43,705 bases of DNA from Vectrevirus T147P1: sequence record OZ035788.1. The stretch is one strand, 5' to 3'. The notes under the pieces were generated by a model. That model made no database searches, was not told the DNA's origin, and saw only the letters and a program-made list of their open reading frames with translations. Below, piece by piece: positions 30 through 14,003 of the stretch. Each line of letters begins with the position of its first letter. Within the stretch, counting starts at the first letter, position 1. The translations under genes and the position numbers were made by a program.

Positions 30-329
30 GTGAGCGTACACAATAAACATGCAGCTACAGAGGATGAGGTTGGCATTCTGCATGGTGCTATTACCAAAAT
101 CTTCAATAAGAAAGCACAGGCAATACTGGACACTATAGAAGAAGACCCTGATGCAGCATTACATTTAGTGTCTGGTAAGGATATTGGTGCGATGTGTAAG
201 TGGGTTCTTGATAACGGCATTACCGCCACACCTGCTGCACAGCAGGAAGAGTCCAAGTTATCTAAGCGCCTCAAGGCTATCCGAGAGGCATCCAGTGGTA
301 AGATAATTCAATTCACTAAGGAGGATTGA
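30..329 (+). CDS. terminase small subunit (T7 gp18-like), GTG start
   Basis: 99-aa ORF immediately upstream of and overlapping the large terminase start (TGATG); position conserved in T7/SP6-like genomes; no motif-level confirmation. Confidence 0.5.
   Translation: MSVHNKHAATEDEVGILHGAITKIFNKKAQAILDTIEEDPDAALHLVSGKDIGAMCKWVLDNGITATPAAQQEESKLSKRLKAIREASSGKIIQFTKED
121..143 (+). promoter_or_regulatory. phage RNAP promoter-like site inside terminase small gene
   Basis: CAATACTGGACACTATAGAAGAA matches the window consensus from -14 onward (14/17 upstream positions). Confidence 0.45.
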
Positions 330-2227
330 TGGCTAAGGCAAGAGAATCACAAGCGGAGGCTCTTGCCAGATGGGAGATGCTACAGGAGTTACAGCAGACC
401 TTTCCTTACACAGCGGAAGGTTTGCTTCTCTTTGCAGATACAGTTATTCATAACTTAATTGCAGGCAACCCTCATCTGATTCGTATGCAGGCGGATATCT
501 TGAAGTTCCTATTTTACGGACACAAGTACCGCCTCATCGAAGCACCTCGTGGTATCGCTAAGACAACACTATCAGCAATCTATACGGTATTCCGTATTAT
601 TCATGAACCGCATAAGCGTATCATGGTTGTGTCCCAAAACGCCAAGCGAGCAGAGGAAATCGCAGGTTGGGTAGTTAAAATCTTCCGTGGCTTAGACTTT
701 CTTGAGTTTATGCTGCCGGATATCTACGCTGGGGACCGTGCATCCGTTAAGGCGTTTGAGATTCATTACACCCTACGTGGCAGTGATAAGTCTCCTTCTG
801 TATCATGTTACTCAATCGAAGCAGGTATGCAGGGTGCTCGTGCTGATATTATTCTAGCGGATGACGTAGAGTCGATGCAGAATGCTCGTACGGCAGCGGG
901 CCGTGCCTTGCTTGAGGAACTGACTAAGGAGTTTGAATCTATCAACCAGTTTGGGGATATCATTTACCTTGGTACACCTCAGAACGTAAACTCTATCTAC
1001 AACAACCTACCTGCTCGTGGTTACTCTGTTCGTATCTGGACTGCGCGTTACCCTTCAGTAGAGCAAGAGCAATGTTATGGCGACTTCCTTGCACCTATGA
1101 TTGTTCAAGATATGAAGGACAACCCAGCACTTCGCTCAGGGTACGGGTTGGATGGTAATAGTGGTGCACCTTGTGCCCCTGAAATGTATGATGATGAAGT
1201 CCTGATTGAGAAGGAAATCTCTCAGGGTGCTGCTAAGTTCCAGCTTCAGTTCATGCTTAACACTCGCATGATGGATGCTGACAGATACCCATTACGCCTG
1301 AACAATCTAATCTTCACCTCGTTTGGTACAGAGGAAGTCCCTGTGATGCCTACGTGGAGTAATGATTCCATAAACATCATTGGTGATGCACCTAAGTATG
1401 GTAACAAGCCTACGGATTTCATGTACAGACCTGTAGCTCGCCCATACGAATGGGGTGCTGTCTCCCGCAAGATTATGTATATTGACCCTGCTGGTGGTGG
1501 TAAGAACGGAGATGAGACGGGTGCAGCCATCGTATTCCTGCACGGCACATTCATTTATGTGTATCAGTGCTTTGGTGTACCTGGCGGATACCGAGAGTCG
1601 TCCCTGAATCGCATTGTGCAGGCCGCAAAGCAGGCGGGTGTTAAAGAGGTATTCATTGAGAAGAACTTTGGTCATGGCGCGTTTGAGGCGGTAATTAAGC
1701 CGTATTTTGAACGAGAGTGGCCTGTAACTCTGGAAGAGGATTACGCCACCGGACAGAAAGAGTTGCGTATCATTGAGACGCTGGAGCCGCTCATGGCAGC
1801 CCATAGGCTTATCTTCAATGCAGAGATGGTGAAGTCAGACTTTGAGTCGGTACAGCACTATCCGCTTGAACTACGCATGTCCTACAGTCTTTTCAATCAA
1901 ATGTCGAACATAACGATTGAGAAGAACAGCCTCCGGCACGATGACCGCCTAGACGCCCTGTATGGCGCTATACGGCAATTAACTTCTCAGATAGACTATG
2001 ACGAGGTTACACGGATTAATCGCCTCAGAGCGCAGGAGATGCGCGATTACATCCATGCTATGAATACACCTCATCTACGCAGGGCAATGCTATATGGAGA
2101 TTACGGTACTGAGCGAAGAGTGACCAACACTTCCGTAGCGATGCAGCAGCGAGTTTACGGGCAGAACTACCGAAATAAATCGGCAAGCAGAAATACACTT
2201 TCTGCAAGGATTTCAAGGACTTATTAA
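329..2227 (+). CDS. terminase large subunit (T7 gp19-like)
   Basis: 633-aa ORF; Walker A-like EAPRGIAKTT and Walker B-like IILADDVE; AGGAGG RBS; size and position as in T7-like phages. Confidence 0.9.
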   Translation: MAKARESQAEALARWEMLQELQQTFPYTAEGLLLFADTVIHNLIAGNPHLIRMQADILKFLFYGHKYRLIEAPRGIAKTTLSAIYTVFRIIHEPHKRIMVVSQNAKRAEEIAGWVVKIFRGLDFLEFMLPDIYAGDRASVKAFEIHYTLRGSDKSPSVSCYSIEAGMQGARADIILADDVESMQNARTAAGRALLEELTKEFESINQFGDIIYLGTPQNVNSIYNNLPARGYSVRIWTARYPSVEQEQCYGDFLAPMIVQDMKDNPALRSGYGLDGNSGAPCAPEMYDDEVLIEKEISQGAAKFQLQFMLNTRMMDADRYPLRLNNLIFTSFGTEEVPVMPTWSNDSINIIGDAPKYGNKPTDFMYRPVARPYEWGAVSRKIMYIDPAGGGKNGDETGAAIVFLHGTFIYVYQCFGVPGGYRESSLNRIVQAAKQAGVKEVFIEKNFGHGAFEAVIKPYFEREWPVTLEEDYATGQKELRIIETLEPLMAAHRLIFNAEMVKSDFESVQHYPLELRMSYSLFNQMSNITIEKNSLRHDDRLDALYGAIRQLTSQIDYDEVTRINRLRAQEMRDYIHAMNTPHLRRAMLYGDYGTERRVTNTSVAMQQRVYGQNYRNKSASRNTLSARISRTY

Positions 2228-3890: not shown

Positions 3891-3913
3891 ATTTACTGGA
3901 CACTATAGAAGAG
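3891..3913 (+). promoter_or_regulatory. phage RNAP promoter upstream of tailspike 1
   Basis: ATTTACTGGACACTATAGAAGAG, exact consensus. Confidence 0.8.
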
Positions 3914-5970: not shown

Positions 5971-7683
5971 ATGCTTCAAAGATTAAGTGCTTACTTGGTG
6001 AAGTACAAGAGTAAACTAACAGGTACTATTGAGCGCCTGCTATCTGATAAACTATCGGATACAATAGATGTTGCGGATTTTGGAGTTAATCCATCTTCTA
6101 ATGACAACAGGCAAGCCCTTCAAGCTGCATTCAATGCGGTCAGATTTCTAGGCGGTGGTACTGTATCAGTCACTAAAGCTGGCGAATATAAACTCAGTGG
6201 TACTGTTGAGATATTTGCTAATACACACTTCAAGGTTGCTAAAGGTGTAACATTTGTACGTGACTACGAAACAGGAGATACGCTATTCAGATTATCACAA
6301 GGGCAAGCTAGTAATGTAACAGTCAGTGGAGGTGTCTATGAAGGCAATGGTCACATTAAAGGAGATACACCTTTTGTAGTATTTGCATCTACTAGTAATA
6401 ATGATTTGAAGTTTGAAGGCATAACAGTTAACAATGTAGTGGACTACCACGCCATAGATTTAGCAGATTGGAACAACGTAGTTATTCGTGATTGTAAGTT
6501 CCTAGGGTTTAAGAATACAGGCAGTCGTAACTTCTCAGAGGCTATACAGTTAGACCCAGGACTTATTACAGTAGGTCGCTATGTGCAGTCTAGTGGTTTA
6601 CTGGTAGAGAATTGCTATGCTGGCCCAAACCTTGATTCTGGATTTGGCGGGTATGGTGCTCTAGTAGGAAATCATGCATCAGCTTATGGTGTTCAAGATA
6701 ACAACATTAGAATCCTAAATTGCACTACAGATGGTGCGCTCTTTGCAGGTGTACGTGTATTTAACTGGAAAAACTGGACAGTACGTGGTTGCACCTTTAG
6801 AAACTCTAATGCAAGAGGTATTCATGTTACACCTGTCTCCTCTCAAACTAAACCGCAAGGAACTCGACAAGGTAGTGTTGTAGATTGTACTTTTGATGGC
6901 GTAAGAACACCAGTGCTAATTGCGGCACCATCTTGGCCTTTTACCGATATTAGTGACATTTGGCATGACCATGTTGAAGTTTCTAATAATACTATGATCC
7001 TCACAGAGGATGTATCCTATGGTATAGATGCAAGGTGGTGTAAGAATTTAATTGTAAAAGGTAATACAGGCTCTGGTGGCTTAGGGTTAATCGGTTTACG
7101 CTTTGGGACAAAATACCACATCGAAGGTAATACTTGGGAAAACGGAAGAGGTAGTGGGATTTGGTTAGGTGAGTCTGATGCTGCTACATTCATTGGTACT
7201 GGCTTATCGGGCGAAGGTATACTTAGTCGTAATATCCTCTCTAAATTAGGGCAATATGGTATTCATGTAAACTGCAAGGTTGGCGGTCTAGTGATTAAGG
7301 CTAATAATATGAAGGAAGTATCTACAGCTGAAGCAGGTAGGCACTTCATTAGCATAGACACAGGAGCTAACAACATCCTAGTAGAAGGTAATATTGGAGT
7401 AGATGGAGAAAGCCCTAACAAGCCAAGCCTTGGTATTCGTGTTACTTCTTCTTGCTCCAATATTAAACTAATTGGCAATGATTGCTATGGTACGCAAGCA
7501 CCTCAGAATAACCAAGGAGTCGGTTCTAGTACGGTGATTGTTTATGGACTAAATGGTAATCCTACAACTTTAGGCGTAGGTGCACCTGTAGGCTCTTTAG
7601 CAACTGATATCAATGGGTCTGGTGGTAGTACATTGTACGTTAAAGAATCTGGTACATCTGCTCAAGGTTGGGTTGCAAAGTAG
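5971..7683 (+). CDS. tailspike protein 2, pectate-lyase-like beta-helix
   Basis: 570 aa; AGGAGG RBS; repeated beta-helix rungs (NNIRILNCTTDG, VRGCTFRNSNARGIHV). Confidence 0.75.
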   Translation: MLQRLSAYLVKYKSKLTGTIERLLSDKLSDTIDVADFGVNPSSNDNRQALQAAFNAVRFLGGGTVSVTKAGEYKLSGTVEIFANTHFKVAKGVTFVRDYETGDTLFRLSQGQASNVTVSGGVYEGNGHIKGDTPFVVFASTSNNDLKFEGITVNNVVDYHAIDLADWNNVVIRDCKFLGFKNTGSRNFSEAIQLDPGLITVGRYVQSSGLLVENCYAGPNLDSGFGGYGALVGNHASAYGVQDNNIRILNCTTDGALFAGVRVFNWKNWTVRGCTFRNSNARGIHVTPVSSQTKPQGTRQGSVVDCTFDGVRTPVLIAAPSWPFTDISDIWHDHVEVSNNTMILTEDVSYGIDARWCKNLIVKGNTGSGGLGLIGLRFGTKYHIEGNTWENGRGSGIWLGESDAATFIGTGLSGEGILSRNILSKLGQYGIHVNCKVGGLVIKANNMKEVSTAEAGRHFISIDTGANNILVEGNIGVDGESPNKPSLGIRVTSSCSNIKLIGNDCYGTQAPQNNQGVGSSTVIVYGLNGNPTTLGVGAPVGSLATDINGSGGSTLYVKESGTSAQGWVAK

Positions 7684-7692
7684 TAGGATTGC

Positions 7693-7842
7693 ATGCCAAT
7701 AATCAAATCAGTTAAGCAAAGTGCTGTACGCCAGAACACAGAAGAGCTTATTCAATCAGGCCGTGACCCTAAGCAAGCTTATGCCATTGCCAAGGATGTA
7801 CAACGTCGTGCCTTGAAGAAACCTTCTGCATCTTCTGCGTAA
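7693..7842 (+). CDS. small basic hypothetical protein
   Basis: 49-aa ORF MPIIKSVKQSAVRQ... with weak RBS at the right end of the coding region. Confidence 0.3.
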   Translation: MPIIKSVKQSAVRQNTEELIQSGRDPKQAYAIAKDVQRRALKKPSASSA

Positions 7843-7913
7843 GCAGGTTAATATCTTAGTGTACACAAGGGTAGACCTAGGTTTGCTCTTAGTGTATTTA
7901 CAATGGAGGTCTT

Positions 7914-7994
7914 ATGTATATACCTATGGAAGCAATAGTAGGTTGCCTATGCTTGTTGATAGGTTTCGTTATAGGCTTAATAGTAAATCCTTAG
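7914..7994 (+). CDS. tiny hydrophobic peptide
   Basis: 26 aa MYIPMEAIVGCLCLLIGFVIGLIVNP with GGAGG RBS 5 nt upstream. Confidence 0.3.
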   Translation: MYIPMEAIVGCLCLLIGFVIGLIVNP

Positions 7995-8056
7995 TCCTGT
8001 ACAAGGATTAACCAAAGTCAAAATTTTGATATAGGCGTGTGTCAGCTCTCTCGCCC

Positions 8057-8330
8057 TCGCCCTCGCCGGATTTCCCCCATATGGGGCCGCGCTGCGGTTG
8101 GCTTGGGAATTGGGCTGGGCTGGTCCGTCTTCGACGGGTGGCCTAGGGCTTGCCGAGGTCTGCTCTTAGTGACTGCACAAGGAGAACGCCTAGGAAGCGC
8201 TAGGGCACGCCTTAGTATTGGACAAGGTGATTGCCTTAGTGAAGCCTCTTAGTGCATTCCTTAGGCCATTCAGGGTGTTTATGAGGGATTGACAGGGTAT
8301 GATGGCGTGGGCTATCTGTTCGTTTCGTTC
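8057..8330. other. candidate terminal-repeat / physical genome end region
   Basis: GC-rich block beginning TCTCTCGCCCTCGCC, with palindrome CCCCATATGGGG (8085-8096) and a T7 CJ-like ATCTGTT (8313-8319); strongly reminiscent of the T7 terminal repeat; exact ends not determinable. Confidence 0.4.
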
Positions 8331-8638
8331 ACTCCGCTTGCGCTACGTTCACTCGCTCACGTGTACCTTAGGTTATTACTTGATGGATAGCTTAGGTTAA
8401 CCTTAGTGGACTACCTTAGTTAAAGCCTTAGTGCTTATCTTAGTAATAGCTTAGTAGTGTACCTTAGTAAGTCTTAGTGTCTTCTCTTAGTGATTGCACA
8501 TGCAAGCATGTAAGATGCCATTAGGTCGCGGTCGGTAGACCGCTAAAGAAAGAGAATAGTAATAAGATGCAGTAAGAGGAACACCGGAAACCTAGCCAAC
8601 CTAACCTATCCTAGCTCTGTATCTATTGCTTTTCCTTA

Positions 8639-8654
8639 GTCTCACATGTTAGAC
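8639..8654. repeat. degenerate copy of the 16-bp palindrome (GTCTCACATGTTAGAC)
   Basis: One mismatch to GTCTCACATGTGAGAC. Confidence 0.4.
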
Positions 8655-8688
8655 AACCTATCTTATTCTTAGTGATGATAACTTAGTG

Positions 8689-8717
8689 TTGACAAGATAA
8701 TCTTAGTGTAATACTAT
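8689..8717 (+). promoter_or_regulatory. candidate host sigma70 early promoter
   Basis: TTGACA, 17-nt spacer, TACTAT, upstream of the first early genes. Confidence 0.35.
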
Positions 8718-8860
8718 GCATCACGTAGGCGGTGCTGAGGCACCTAGTAGCCAGCTAGTAAGGCATACGAAGAGACTAGTGCTTACATTGCTCTTTAACA
8801 ATTTGCTTAGTGTAACCTATGTATGCCGTGGTTAATTACTTATTGAATGAGGGATTAACT

Positions 8861-9040
8861 ATGACATTAAACAACCGTGAACTATCCGTTCTCTTCACTC
8901 TGTTGTGCTACATGATTCGTAACAACGAATTGCTTACAGATGACGAGTTGGCACTGTATCACCGCTTTCTTAACGAAGGTTGGACCGATACAGTTAATCA
9001 ATACCGTAACATGATAGATGAGTTGAGGGAGGGTAAATAA
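8861..9040 (+). CDS. early hypothetical protein
   Basis: ORF opens at 8819 but the GAGGG RBS precedes the ATG at 8861; translationally coupled to the next ORF. Confidence 0.5.
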   Translation: MTLNNRELSVLFTLLCYMIRNNELLTDDELALYHRFLNEGWTDTVNQYRNMIDELREGK

Positions 9041-9264
9041 TGTATCAACATGATGTATTCTTTGAATCAGCTAGTGAAGCTATCCGCTTCCGTGATGATA
9101 TGATGCAAGCTGGTGTAGGCGTTGATGTGTATCACTATTTGATAGATTACGACACTGAATATCACCGAGTTACCTTAGTATCTGAGTATGACAACCAAGT
9201 CATTACTGAGTATCTAGGCAGTGAAGATTACGATTACGATGAAGTAATCACGACAAATCTCTAA
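9040..9264 (+). CDS. early acidic Tyr/Asp-rich hypothetical protein
   Basis: 74 aa; GAGGG RBS; TAAATG overlap with the upstream ORF. Confidence 0.55.
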   Translation: MYQHDVFFESASEAIRFRDDMMQAGVGVDVYHYLIDYDTEYHRVTLVSEYDNQVITEYLGSEDYDYDEVITTNL

Positions 9265-11375: not shown

Positions 11376-14003
11376 ATGCAAGACCTACACGCTATTCAAC
11401 TTCAACTTGAAGAAGAAATGTTTAACGGCGGTATCCGTCGCTTTGAAGCGGACCAACAACGCCAGATTGCATCCGGTAATGAATCAGACACGGCATGGAA
11501 TCGCCGCTTATTGTCCGAGTTAATCGCGCCAATGGCTGAAGGTATTCAGGCTTATAAGGAAGAGTACGAAGGCAAGCGCGGTCGTGCACCACGTGCATTG
11601 GCTTTCATTAACTGCGTAGAAAATGAAGTGGCAGCGTATATCACGATGAAGATCGTAATGGATATGCTTAACACTGATGTAACCTTGCAAGCTATCGCTA
11701 TGAATGTAGCTGACCGCATCGAAGACCAAGTGCGCTTCAGTAAACTAGAAGGCCATGCAGCTAAATATTTTGAGAAGGTCAAGAAGTCACTTAAGGCAAG
11801 TAAGACTAAATCATATCGCCATGCGCACAATGTAGCGGTCGTGGCTGAGAAGTCAGTAGCTGACCGTGACGCTGATTTCTCTCGCTGGGAAGCGTGGCCT
11901 AAAGATACCTTGCTACAAATTGGTATGACCTTGCTAGAAATACTGGAAAATAGTGTATTCTTCAACGGGCAGCCTGTTTTCATCCGCACCTTGCGTACTA
12001 ATGGCGGCAAACACGGTGTTTACTACTTACAGACTAGTGAACACGTTGGCGAGTGGATAACCGCCTTCAAAGAGCACGTAGCGCAACTAAGCCCTGCATA
12101 TGCACCTTGCGTTATTCCTCCGCGTCCGTGGGTTTCACCTTTCAACGGTGGGTTTCATACTGAGAAAGTAGCAAGCCGTATCCGCCTTGTTAAAGGCAAC
12201 CGTGAGCACGTCCGTAAGTTAACTAAAAAGCAAATGCCAGCGGTCTATAAGGCTGTTAACGCCTTACAAGCTACTAAGTGGCAGGTTAACAAGGAAGTAT
12301 TGCAGGTAGTAGAAGATGTTATTCGTCTAGACCTCGGTTATGGTGTACCTTCCTTTAAGCCGCTCATTGACCGCGAGAACAAACCAGCTAACCCTGTTCC
12401 TCTTGAGTTCCAACACCTGAGAGGCCGTGAACTGAAAGAGATGCTTACGCCAGAACAGTGGCAAGCTTTTATAAACTGGAAAGGAGAATGTACCAAGCTG
12501 TATACCGCTGAAACTAAGCGCGGAAGCAAGTCGGCGGCGACCGTTCGCATGGTTGGACAGGCCCGTAAATACAGCCAGTTTGACGCAATTTATTTTGTGT
12601 ATGCACTGGACAGCCGTTCGCGCGTTTATGCGCAATCTAGCACGCTCTCGCCGCAATCAAACGACTTAGGCAAGGCATTGCTCCGTTTTACCGAAGGGCA
12701 GCGTCTTGATAGCGCTGAGGCGCTTAAGTGGTTTTTGGTGAACGGGGCGAATAATTGGGGTTGGGATAAGAAAACTTTTGACGTGCGCACCGCTAACGTG
12801 CTGGATGGCGAATTTCAAGACATGTGCCGCGATATTGCAGCCGACCCGCTGACCTTCACTCAATGGGTAAATGCTGATTCCCCTTACGGCTTCCTTGCAT
12901 GGTGCTTTGAATATGCGCGTTATCTGGATGCACTGGATGAAGGCACGCAAGACCAATTCATGACGCACCTACCCGTCCATCAAGACGGTAGTTGCTCTGG
13001 TATCCAGCACTATAGCGCGATGTTACGCGATGAAGTAGGTGCGAAAGCAGTAAACCTTAAGCCTTCTGACTCCCCTCAAGATATTTATGGCGCGGTTGCG
13101 CAGGTTGTTATCCAGAAGAATTACGCCTACATGAATGCAGACGATGCAGAGACTTTCACATCTGGAAGCGTCACACTTACAGGTGCAGAACTGCGTAGCA
13201 TGGCTAGTGCGTGGGATATGATAGGAATCACTCGCGGATTGACCAAAAAGCCCGTAATGACACTACCTTATGGCAGCACACGTCTAACCTGCCGTGAATC
13301 AGTGATTGATTATATCGTTGATTTGGAAGAAAAAGAGGCCCAACGAGCTATTGCGGAAGGACGTACCGCCAATCCTGTACATCCTTTTGATAATGACCGT
13401 AAGGACAGCCTGACACCTAGCGCAGCTTATAACTATATGACAGCTTTAATCTGGCCTTCTATTTCGGAAGTGGTTAAAGCTCCTATAGTGGCAATGAAAA
13501 TGATTCGTCAGCTTGCCCGTTTCGCAGCTAAAAGGAATGAAGGCCTAGAGTATACCTTGCCTACTGGCTTCATCTTGCAACAAAAGATAATGGCTACTGA
13601 TATGCTCCGCGTATCCACTTGCCTGATGGGGGAAATCAAGATGAGTCTACAGATTGAAACGGACGTAGTGGATGAAACGGCTATGATGGGCGCTGCTGCT
13701 CCTAACTTTGTGCATGGTCATGATGCCAGTCACCTTATCTTAACAGTCTGCGACCTTGTTGATAAAGGGATTACATCTATCGCAGTCATTCATGATTCTT
13801 TCGGTACTCACGCAGGCCGTACAGCCGATCTACGTGATAGTCTAAGGGCAGAAATGGTGAAGATGTATCAAGGCCGTAATGCCCTGCAAAGCCTGTTAGA
13901 TGAGCATGAAGAACGCTGGTTAGTAGACACCGGAATCCAAGTGCCAGAGCAAGGAGAGTTTGACCTTAACGAAATCTTAGTATCTGACTATTGCTTCGCA
14001 TAA
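11376..14003 (+). CDS. single-subunit DNA-dependent RNA polymerase (SP6/T7 family)
   Basis: 875 aa; N-terminus [32 protein letters not shown]... and internal [25 protein letters not shown] / [11 protein letters not shown] / IHDSFGTHA match SP6 RNAP as recalled; AGGAG RBS. Confidence 0.97.

Follow-up and report, generated by a model that had tools for sequence, protein, structure and literature searches.

A block of about 1 kb in Vectrevirus T147P1 is very probably the concatemer junction of a phage of the T7 supergroup. Within the window, i.e. the whole stretch of 43,705 nucleotides that was analyzed (OZ035788.1), this block would comprise unique sequence of the right genome end, one collapsed copy of a direct terminal repeat of ~265 bp, and the leader of the left end, which reaches to position 8861. 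A sequence-only reading of the same DNA had taken the block for T7-type genome termini; homologous repeats at both ends of the K1-5, K1E, and SP6 records supported this. The terminal-repeat region is already known as the homologue of regions in public records of close relatives: GenBank has included the repeats of SP6, K1-5, and K1E since 2004-2006, and biologically the finding is not new. The question touched by our results is the function of strand-specific heptamer arrays in phages of the T7 supergroup. All features are listed in Table 1.

Table 1. Features of the junction block and of associated genes and promoters in the T147P1 window
Feature	Position	Strand	Support
Small terminase subunit gene	30-329	+	PHROG 891, E 1e-25
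Large terminase subunit gene, T7 gp19 type	326-2227	+	PHROG 17672, E 9e-241
Last SP6-type phage promoter upstream of the junction, ATTTACTGGACACTATAGAAG	3891-3911	+	SP6-consensus match
CTTAG(T/G) units left of the repeat	7855-7995	+	Aligned position kept in 9-11 of 16 relatives
Hydrophobic 26-aa ORF, MYIPMEAIVGCLCLLIGFVIGLIVNP	7914-7994	+	PHROG 37692, E 3e-13; GGAGG 5 nt upstream
Conserved unique sequence directly left of the repeat	8003-8046		84-97% column identity, 16 relatives
Direct terminal repeat (predicted), one collapsed copy	8047-8314	+	Homology to end duplications of K1-5, K1E, and SP6
(CTCGCC)x3, extreme left end of the repeat	8050-8067	+	TRF 3.0 copies, 100% match
Perfect palindrome CCCCATATGGGG, ~27 nt from the left end	8075-8086		Kept as CCCCATA(T)GGG in all relatives
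Five units inside the repeat (8165, 8211, 8235, 8248, 8260)	8165-8265	+	Among related CCTAGG/CTAGGG motifs
Right-boundary block TTGACAGGG..GCGTGGGCTATCTGTTCG	8289-8322	+	8303-8322 at 91% column identity
TATCTGTT, predicted class II pause signal for T7-type RNA polymerases, non-template strand	8313-8320	+	Position as in T7
Array of ten CTTAG(T/G) units directly right of the repeat	8367-8492	+	Last nine 10-13 bp apart
Conserved two-hairpin module	8493-8582	+	99% identity for 8523-8542
Five further CTTAGT units (8635, 8668, 8682, 8702, 8806)	8635-8812	+	Two flank or overlap the early promoter
Putative sigma-70-type early promoter, TTGACA-17-TACTAT	8689-8717	+	10/12 consensus match
Single-subunit phage RNA polymerase gene	11376-14003	+	PHROG 414, E 3e-290

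Genome record and terminal repeat

The T147P1 record is a complete Vectrevirus genome (SP6 supergroup) in circularly permuted form, opened at the small terminase. The last 300 nt and the first 300 nt of the record were joined and used as a query, which aligned in one piece (99.5%) inside many relatives. Since the end of the record continues into its start in these phages, it represents a complete genome whose circular assembly was opened at the terminase gene; the start just upstream of the small terminase gene indicates that the assembly was reoriented. A megablast search with 7700-8900 matched 122 phage records, nearly all of them Vectrevirus (K1-5/K1E group) or other SP6-like Molineuxvirinae, and the best match covered the full query with 94.7% identity. 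The ~1-kb block showed 85%, 79%, and 70% identity to the end regions of the type members K1-5, K1E, and SP6, respectively, and up to 95% to those of Vectrevirus phages. Many unannotated Vectrevirus records carry the junction at about the same coordinate.

Genes are arranged in the order small terminase, large terminase, two tail fibre/spike genes, the block, early genes, RNA polymerase, and portal, and all ORFs assigned to protein families are located on the + strand. The block is flanked by gene 48 at the left and by a homologue of K1-5 gene 1 (ATG at 8861) at the right. Over its full length, the large terminase is homologous to T7 gp19, with 35% identity across 563 aa (E 3e-99). Seven matches to the SP6 promoter consensus were found in the window, all of them rightward, as compared to none expected. 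Inside 7843-8861, no such promoter was detected with up to three mismatches; the nearest one upstream is located at 3891.

The repeat was delimited by comparison with linear records, which carry exact end duplications of 234 bp (K1-5), 288 bp (K1E), 174 bp (SP6), and 160 bp (T7). Further annotated repeats measure 286 bp in mutPK1A2, 267 bp in Mt1B1_P10, 283 bp in Raoultella P3a, and 180 bp in UAB_Phi78. In T147P1, the left boundary motif TC(TC)TCG(C/G)CC is located at 8047-8056 and the right boundary motif GTGGGCT(A), directly before TCTGTT, at 8306-8320; the end duplications of K1-5, K1E, and SP6 have exactly these boundaries. On window coordinates, the SP6 record starts at 8047 (TCTCTCGG), K1E at 8049 (TCTCGCC), Mt1B1_P10 and mutPK1A2 at 8050, and K1-5 at 8051. 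The left end among these records thus differs by at most 4 nt (TCTCTC, TCTC, CTC, or TC) and the right end by 1 nt. Bases left of 8049 vary among relatives (CAGCTC or GAGGTG) and TCTCGCCC is common from 8049 on; as the shared sequence begins only there, 8049 is favored as the left end.

At the right boundary, the repeat end ...GTGGGCTA corresponds to window position 8314 in all compared SP6-like records except UAB_Phi78. The same phage is the exception among seven SP6-like records, the other six of which have a repeat ending with GGGCTA and TCTGTT directly after. The ends of UAB_Phi78 were mapped by run-off sequencing (PMC4837284), and its 180-bp repeat is offset by ~11-14 nt leftward relative to the other records. 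The repeat end of Raoultella P3a reads GGGCTAATCTGTT. In T7 and T3, the repeat ends with ...GTCCCT and ATCTGTT follows directly; therefore, the right end in T147P1 may also be 8313, and the terminal A of the repeat could be an untemplated addition in run-off sequencing. Judged from these homologies, the physical ends of T147P1 would lie at 8047-8051 and at 8313/8314, which corresponds to a repeat of 263-268 bp.

The start motif of the repeat occurs only once in the window. Hence, the repeat is collapsed, and the record would be a circular permutation of a linear virion genome that should be ~265 bp longer, i.e. roughly 43.97 kb. Base composition agrees with an earlier claim of a GC-rich segment that contains a palindrome: the GC content of 8047-8314 is 58% (68% in the left half) as compared to 45% for the window, the segment starts with TCTCTCGCCC at 8047-8056, and the palindrome CCCCATATGGGG follows.

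It is extremely unlikely that the ends are located elsewhere, or that DNA is packaged by a headful mechanism and the block is simply an intergenic regulatory region. Such a reading would be consistent with the fact that the record itself has no ends at the block, the ends being assigned by homology; however, homologous repeats are present at both ends of the records of at least seven linear relatives, one of which was mapped by run-off sequencing, the terminase is of the T7 type, and the boundary motifs are invariant.

Conserved elements and predicted maturation of the genome

The window was aligned with 16 relatives, namely Vectrevirus phages, SP6, SP6-like phages of Klebsiella and Citrobacter, and five IMG/VR contigs. 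A scan of IMG/VR with GTGGGCTATCTGTT had yielded 120 loci, which were mostly chance matches to a 14-mer; about nine were SP6-like as judged by their CTTAGT density. Conservation among the 16 relatives peaked most sharply at 8003-8082, 8303-8322, 8523-8542, and 8563-8582, and each boundary of the repeat falls within a sharply conserved block (8003-8082 and 8289-8322, respectively).

No other stretch on the left side of the block is as well conserved as the unique sequence 8003-8046; it includes a palindrome, TCAAAATTTTGA, at 8018-8029 just outside the repeat and is a candidate for a part of the left-end cleavage signal. The short repeats at the extreme left end are kept as CTCG(C/G)CC in Vectrevirus and SP6 relatives and as CGCCCGT in Klebsiella relatives and contig L010. 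Counterparts of the palindrome CCCCATATGGGG are present in T7, T3, and Era103. The middle of the repeat is variable among relatives through insertions, deletions, and replacements, which explains repeat lengths from 174 to 288 bp.

At the right boundary, GTGGGCTATCTGTTC is invariant in 17 of 17 aligned sequences, and a TTGACA is located at 8289-8294. The heptamer ATCTGTT, which had been assigned to 8313-8319, is indeed present, its correct position being 8314-8320. This is the only copy on the + strand in 43.7 kb (Markov-1 expectation 3.5), and three copies are found on the - strand. Position of the pause signal is shared with T7 (161-167), T3 (232), SP6, K1-5, and K1E. Taken alone, neither the heptamer nor the 12-bp palindrome exceeds chance; both gain their weight from position and from conservation in 16 of 16 aligned relatives. 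DNA folding of the two boundary blocks was no better than that of shuffled sequences (z = -0.41 and 0.07); therefore, the boundaries are sequence signals and not strong hairpins. For the T7 junction, an extended -10 sigma-70 promoter has been reported; the corresponding reading for T147P1 was rejected, because TGTTCGTTT is found in place of the TGTTACAGT of T7 and lacks the needed TA. Although a conserved TTGACA precedes TATCTG by 18 nt, the -10 region is poor.

A T7-type junction with a polymerase pause site is textbook knowledge. The sequence TATCTGT(T/A) is reportedly conserved at this position in T7-like phages, and packaging of T7 DNA is said to run right end first. Maturation and packaging in T7 start when gp18 and gp19 interact with the paused complex of polymerase and lysozyme (PMC3276506). 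By analogy, we infer a T7-like maturation mechanism for T147P1. Replication would produce head-to-tail concatemers with one repeat per junction. A rightward-moving phage RNA polymerase, probably coming from 3891, would meet TATCTGTT on the non-template strand and pause at about 8326-8328; the paused complex would recruit terminase-prohead, and the DNA would be cut at the right boundary between GGGCT(A) and TCTGTT. Packaging would then proceed from the right end; with the repeat duplicated, the genome would be finished by another cut, this time at the left boundary between ...CAGC and TCTCTCGCC. Upon infection, the left end would enter first, and host RNA polymerase would start at the 8689 promoter, much as at A1-A3 of T7. 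The promoter at 3891 is the likely source of the rightward transcription that reaches the pause signal, read-through to the junction being presumed. Pausing of the phage polymerase at TATCTGTT is likewise predicted from T7; a literature search found no accessible paper showing pausing of an SP6-type polymerase at this site.

The block had been described as having no convincing ORF. This held true for 7995-8860, the non-coding stretch between the 26-aa ORF and the gene 1 homologue, and had to be corrected for 7914-7994, where the ORF belongs to a known family (Table 1). SP6 has an annotated 25-aa gene 49 in the matching slot, and the DNA aligns closely there; K1-5 carries a gene 49 of another type, so that the small ORF left of the repeat in T147P1 is of the SP6-gene-49 type. 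ORFs called across 8037-8400 in records of relatives are probably spurious; those annotated inside the repeat, e.g. the counterpart of 8037-8252, cover a part of it that K1-5 and SP6 have deleted or replaced.

The leader of the left end contains the two-hairpin module, which consists of a hairpin at 8498-8511, TAAGATGC at 8511-8518 and again at 8563-8570, and the near-invariant hairpin GCGGTC-GGTA-GACCGC at 8528-8543. In the first of these hairpins, three stem pairs are preserved through changes on both sides, and a DNA fold z of -2.95 was obtained for the module. On the opposite side of the repeat, a hairpin at 7867-7890 tolerates G-U pairs and shows one compensatory change; for these reasons it probably functions at the RNA level. 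An Rfam scan of 7600-9100 revealed no family match, the one snoRNA match (E 0.28) being due to chance. The putative early promoter at 8689 is located ~640 bp from the left end and is conserved in the K1-5-like subgroup; its position is analogous to that of the T7 promoters A1-A3 at 498-750. Another sigma-70 promoter considered at 8494-8516 was rejected, with TTGCAC and TAAGAT only 11 nt apart.

The CTTAGT units and their possible role

Around twenty CTTAGT(G/A) repeats had been noticed on both sides of the GC-rich segment, and the count was confirmed. Seventeen exact copies of CTTAGT(G/A) are distributed over 7855-8812, all of them on the + strand. CTTAGT occurs in the block 20 times on the + strand and not at all on the - strand, as compared to 0.39 copies expected from the rate outside the block (Poisson p ~2e-27). 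With CTTAG[TG] as the motif, 23 units were found on the + strand (20 CTTAGT, three CTTAGG) and none on the - strand; three of these lie left of the repeat, five inside, ten in the array directly right of it, and five further right. The same pattern of zones is common to T7 and to 13 SP6-like relatives with a recognizable left boundary.

Units of the array are spaced by 11.9 bp on average (last nine), and TRF reported periods of 24 and 48. They are conserved to 94-97% as compared to 76-82% for the spacers, and eight of the ten sites are retained in at least 12 of the 16 relatives. When sets of ten 6-nt blocks were drawn at random 20000 times, the conservation of the array units was never reached. 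Unit and spacer columns share one tree; therefore, the array units are under real selective constraint. Inside the repeat, units are conserved to 76% and spacers to 80%.

The motif differs between lineages, being C[CT]TAAAG in T7 and T3, CTTAGT in SP6 and K1-5, and CTTATGG in Era103; phiKMV has other motifs. Since the units are conserved above their spacers and differ between lineages, the function of such arrays becomes a testable question, although the present data do not answer it. To our knowledge, not even for T7 has a role of these arrays been established. A literature search on CTTAGT in phages returned nothing relevant, the primary genome papers of SP6 and K1-5 being outside its reach. 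CTTAGTG was also considered as a decoy of the SP6 promoter (ATTTAGGTG...) and rejected: promoters in the window read ATTTAC(T/C)GGACACTATAGAAG and do not contain the unit.

We tentatively propose that the CTTAGT units may be bound, as an oriented array, by a packaging protein specific to the lineage; the best candidate is the small terminase. Slightly more doubtful is the related idea that they constitute a lineage-specific recognition code read by a fast-evolving small terminase or by another packaging or ejection protein; in that case, an oriented array with a spacing of ~12 bp would wrap a protein oligomer. Divergence of the small terminase from T7 gp18 parallels the change of the repeat unit, a link based on two or three lineages. 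If a recognition code existed, joint changes of unit and small terminase would set the packaging specificity among co-infecting phages of the T7 supergroup. Two observations argue against terminase sites: the main array is located beyond the right-end cut, an odd place if packaging runs from right to left, and within the repeat, conservation of the units does not exceed that of their spacers. The location of the densest array, 8367-8492 in the left-end leader, on the side of the right-end cut not packaged with that end and just upstream of the near-invariant two-hairpin module, would suit sites for a replication or genome-entry protein. The units would then act as a secondary origin resembling iterons, or they would serve as a brake or handle for the ~850 bp that enter the cell first. 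Oriented, closely spaced repeats are typical of iterons, and the equivalent zone of T7 carries the promoter phiOL, which acts as a secondary origin. We nevertheless consider this role unlikely: units are also present inside and left of the repeat, at the other genome end, which fits a junction-centered role better, the block contains no phage promoter, and no known initiator protein could be assigned.

An activity of the units as RNA, with CUUAGU in read-through or leader transcripts serving processing, stability, or protein binding, would account for the strict strand bias that places every unit on the transcribed sense strand, and the nearby hairpin at 7867-7890 probably acts at the RNA level as well. 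Yet transcription of the main array may be poor, since the pause signal precedes it and the only good sigma-70 promoter (8689) follows it; furthermore, the array shows neither a consistent secondary structure nor a match to an Rfam family, and this explanation appears quite improbable.

Comparison with known phages

The closest systems are K1-5 (AY370674) and K1E (AM084415), both Vectrevirus, which are homologous to T147P1 over the whole block with 79-85% identity. Genes 48 and 1 flank the block in these phages too, and the CTTAGT array, the early promoter, and the two-hairpin module are shared, as are the boundary motifs (TC(TC)TCGCCC... at the left, ...GTGGGCTA followed by TCTGTT at the right). 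Differences concern the length of the repeat, which is ~265 bp in T147P1 as compared to 234 bp in K1-5 and 288 bp in K1E because of its variable middle, and the palindrome, which is the perfect CCCCATATGGGG in T147P1 and K1E and CCCCATAGGG in K1-5. SP6 (AY370673, 174 bp), a Zindervirus, agrees with T147P1 in the start of the repeat (TCTCTCGGCCTCGG...) and in its end (GGGCTA directly before TCTGTT); it has CCCCATAGGG, the invariant GCGGTCGGTAGACCGC hairpin, and a CTTAGT array with eight units within the 250 nt that follow the repeat. However, identity is only ~70%, the repeat is shorter, and it contains a single unit. Era103, an Erwinia phage of the Molineuxvirinae with a repeat of 277 bp, carries GTCCCCATAGGG close to its left end, and at its right boundary TTGACAGGC...GGCT is followed by ATCT. 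Strand-specific short repeats follow the repeat in this phage too, but the units are CTTATGG and GGCTAGGCTA, and the boundary reads ATCTATC instead of ATCTGTT. The repeat unit thus changes even within the SP6 supergroup.

The 160-bp repeat of T7 starts with TCTCACAG, contains CCCCCATAGGGGG at 26-38, and is directly followed by ATCTGTT at 161-167. The arrangement of a TCTC start, palindrome, units, and ATCTGTT that the sequence-only reading had ascribed to T7 was found placed alike on the T7 record. T147P1 shares with T7 and T3 the TCTC start, an inverted repeat of a C-run, ATA, and a G-run ~26 nt from the end, and (T)ATCTGTT at the right boundary. All have heptamer units on one strand, left of, inside, and mostly right of the repeat, with a spacing of 12-13 bp; CCTAAAG-type units in T7 number three left, three inside, and 13+2 right, as compared to 3/5/10+5 in T147P1. 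Sigma-70 early promoters 500-750 bp from the left end are common to these phages as well, and large terminase and RNA polymerase are homologous. In contrast, the small terminase of T147P1 is not recognizably similar to T7 gp18 (pairwise BLASTP, E 0.045 over 52 aa), no DNA can be aligned beyond short motifs, and the unit is CTTAGT(G/A) instead of CCTAAAG. The conclusion drawn earlier, that the architecture is conserved and the repeat unit has diverged from that of T7, was correct and extends to T3 (C[CT]TAAAG) and Era103 (CTTATGG). Finally, no phage promoter corresponding to phiOR or phiOL of T7 adjoins the junction of T147P1, and the leader has the conserved two-hairpin module instead; this is a detail without bearing on the block being the genome ends.

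Hairpin and cassette downstream of gene 48

Comparison of aligned relatives, judged by eye, revealed that G-U pairs are tolerated in the hairpin following gene 48 and that SP6 carries a compensatory C-G to T-A change. Because of these two features, the hairpin probably acts in RNA, where it may stabilise the 3' end, mark a processing site or terminate transcription weakly. Its loop holds CCTAGG/CTTAGG, and its 3' arm is overlapped by a CTTAGT unit, one of the short repeats distributed around the terminal repeat.

Gene 48 and the terminal repeat are separated by a variable cassette, also in the relatives L004 and L131-L135, and column identity drops here to 37-53%. The window and SP6 encode a hydrophobic peptide of 25-26 aa, whereas K1-5 carries the unrelated gene 49 (42 aa) and EcoP_C, CrRp3 and Klebsiella phages carry a 51-aa ORF (MIWIHTYG...).

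Features flanking the terminal repeat, and phage promoters (window coordinates)
Feature	Position	Location or strand
10-bp hairpin AAGGGTAGAC-CTAG-GTTTGCTCTT	7867-7890	directly 3' of gene 48
Variable cassette	7900-8000	between gene 48 and repeat
Six bases left of TCTCGCCC	8043-8048	
Near-invariant module	8493-8582	between CTTAGT array and early promoter
Hairpin, ACATGC/GCATGT or ATAGC/GCTAT	8498-8511	in module, followed by TAAGATGC
Hairpin GCGGTC-GGTA-GACCGC	8528-8543	in module
Second TAAGATGC	8563-8570	in module
AACCTAGCC-like tandem repeat, 2.8 copies	8589-8615	between module and next CTTAGT unit
Seven SP6-type phage promoters, ATTTAC(T/C)GGACACTATAGAAG	3891, 16617, 17504, 21250, 22859, 26012, 31045	+ strand

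Ends of the terminal repeat

The six bases preceding TCTCGCCC occur in two versions, CAGCTC (window, K1-5, K1E, SP6) and GAGGTG/GGGGTG (LI10P3, UTI89UKE3, T145P2, L009, L025, L044). This dimorphism suggests that the conserved repeat begins at 8049, which is perhaps also the true left end. Two records deviate: relative to all other SP6-like records, the annotated repeat of UAB_Phi78 (NC_020414.2, 1-180) is displaced to the left, by 14 nt at its start and by 11 nt at its end, and Raoultella phage P3a (283-284) has one additional A at the end of the repeat (GGGCTAATCTGTT). These deviations are either real variation of the ends or artefacts of mapping or assembly.

Relatives' records list 'hypothetical proteins' over the terminal repeat as well as over the array of CTTAGT units (e.g. 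MZ234050 UTI89UKE3_055/056, NC_047920 gp06). Such ORFs, like that at 8037-8252, overlie parts of the repeat that K1-5 and SP6 either lack or have replaced, so the annotations are probably artefactual.

A two-hairpin module, and comparison with Era103 and T7

The module right of the array is kept in SP6, Klebsiella phages and a metagenomic contig of 56% identity. Its second hairpin is invariant; in the first, three pairs are preserved despite changes on both sides. The DNA fold of the module gave z = -2.95, and neither an Rfam match nor a convincing promoter was found in it. The adjacent tandem repeat is kept by most relatives.

Erwinia phage Era103 (1-630) retains GTCCCCATAGGG, plus TTGACAGGC..GGCT then ATCT, but reads ATCTATC where ATCTGTT stands in the window, and has CTTATGG and GGCTAGGCTA in place of CTTAGT. 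In T7, the phage promoters phiOR and phiOL adjoin the concatemer junction, whereas none of the window's seven SP6-type promoters does so; the position of phiOL is held here by the two-hairpin module.
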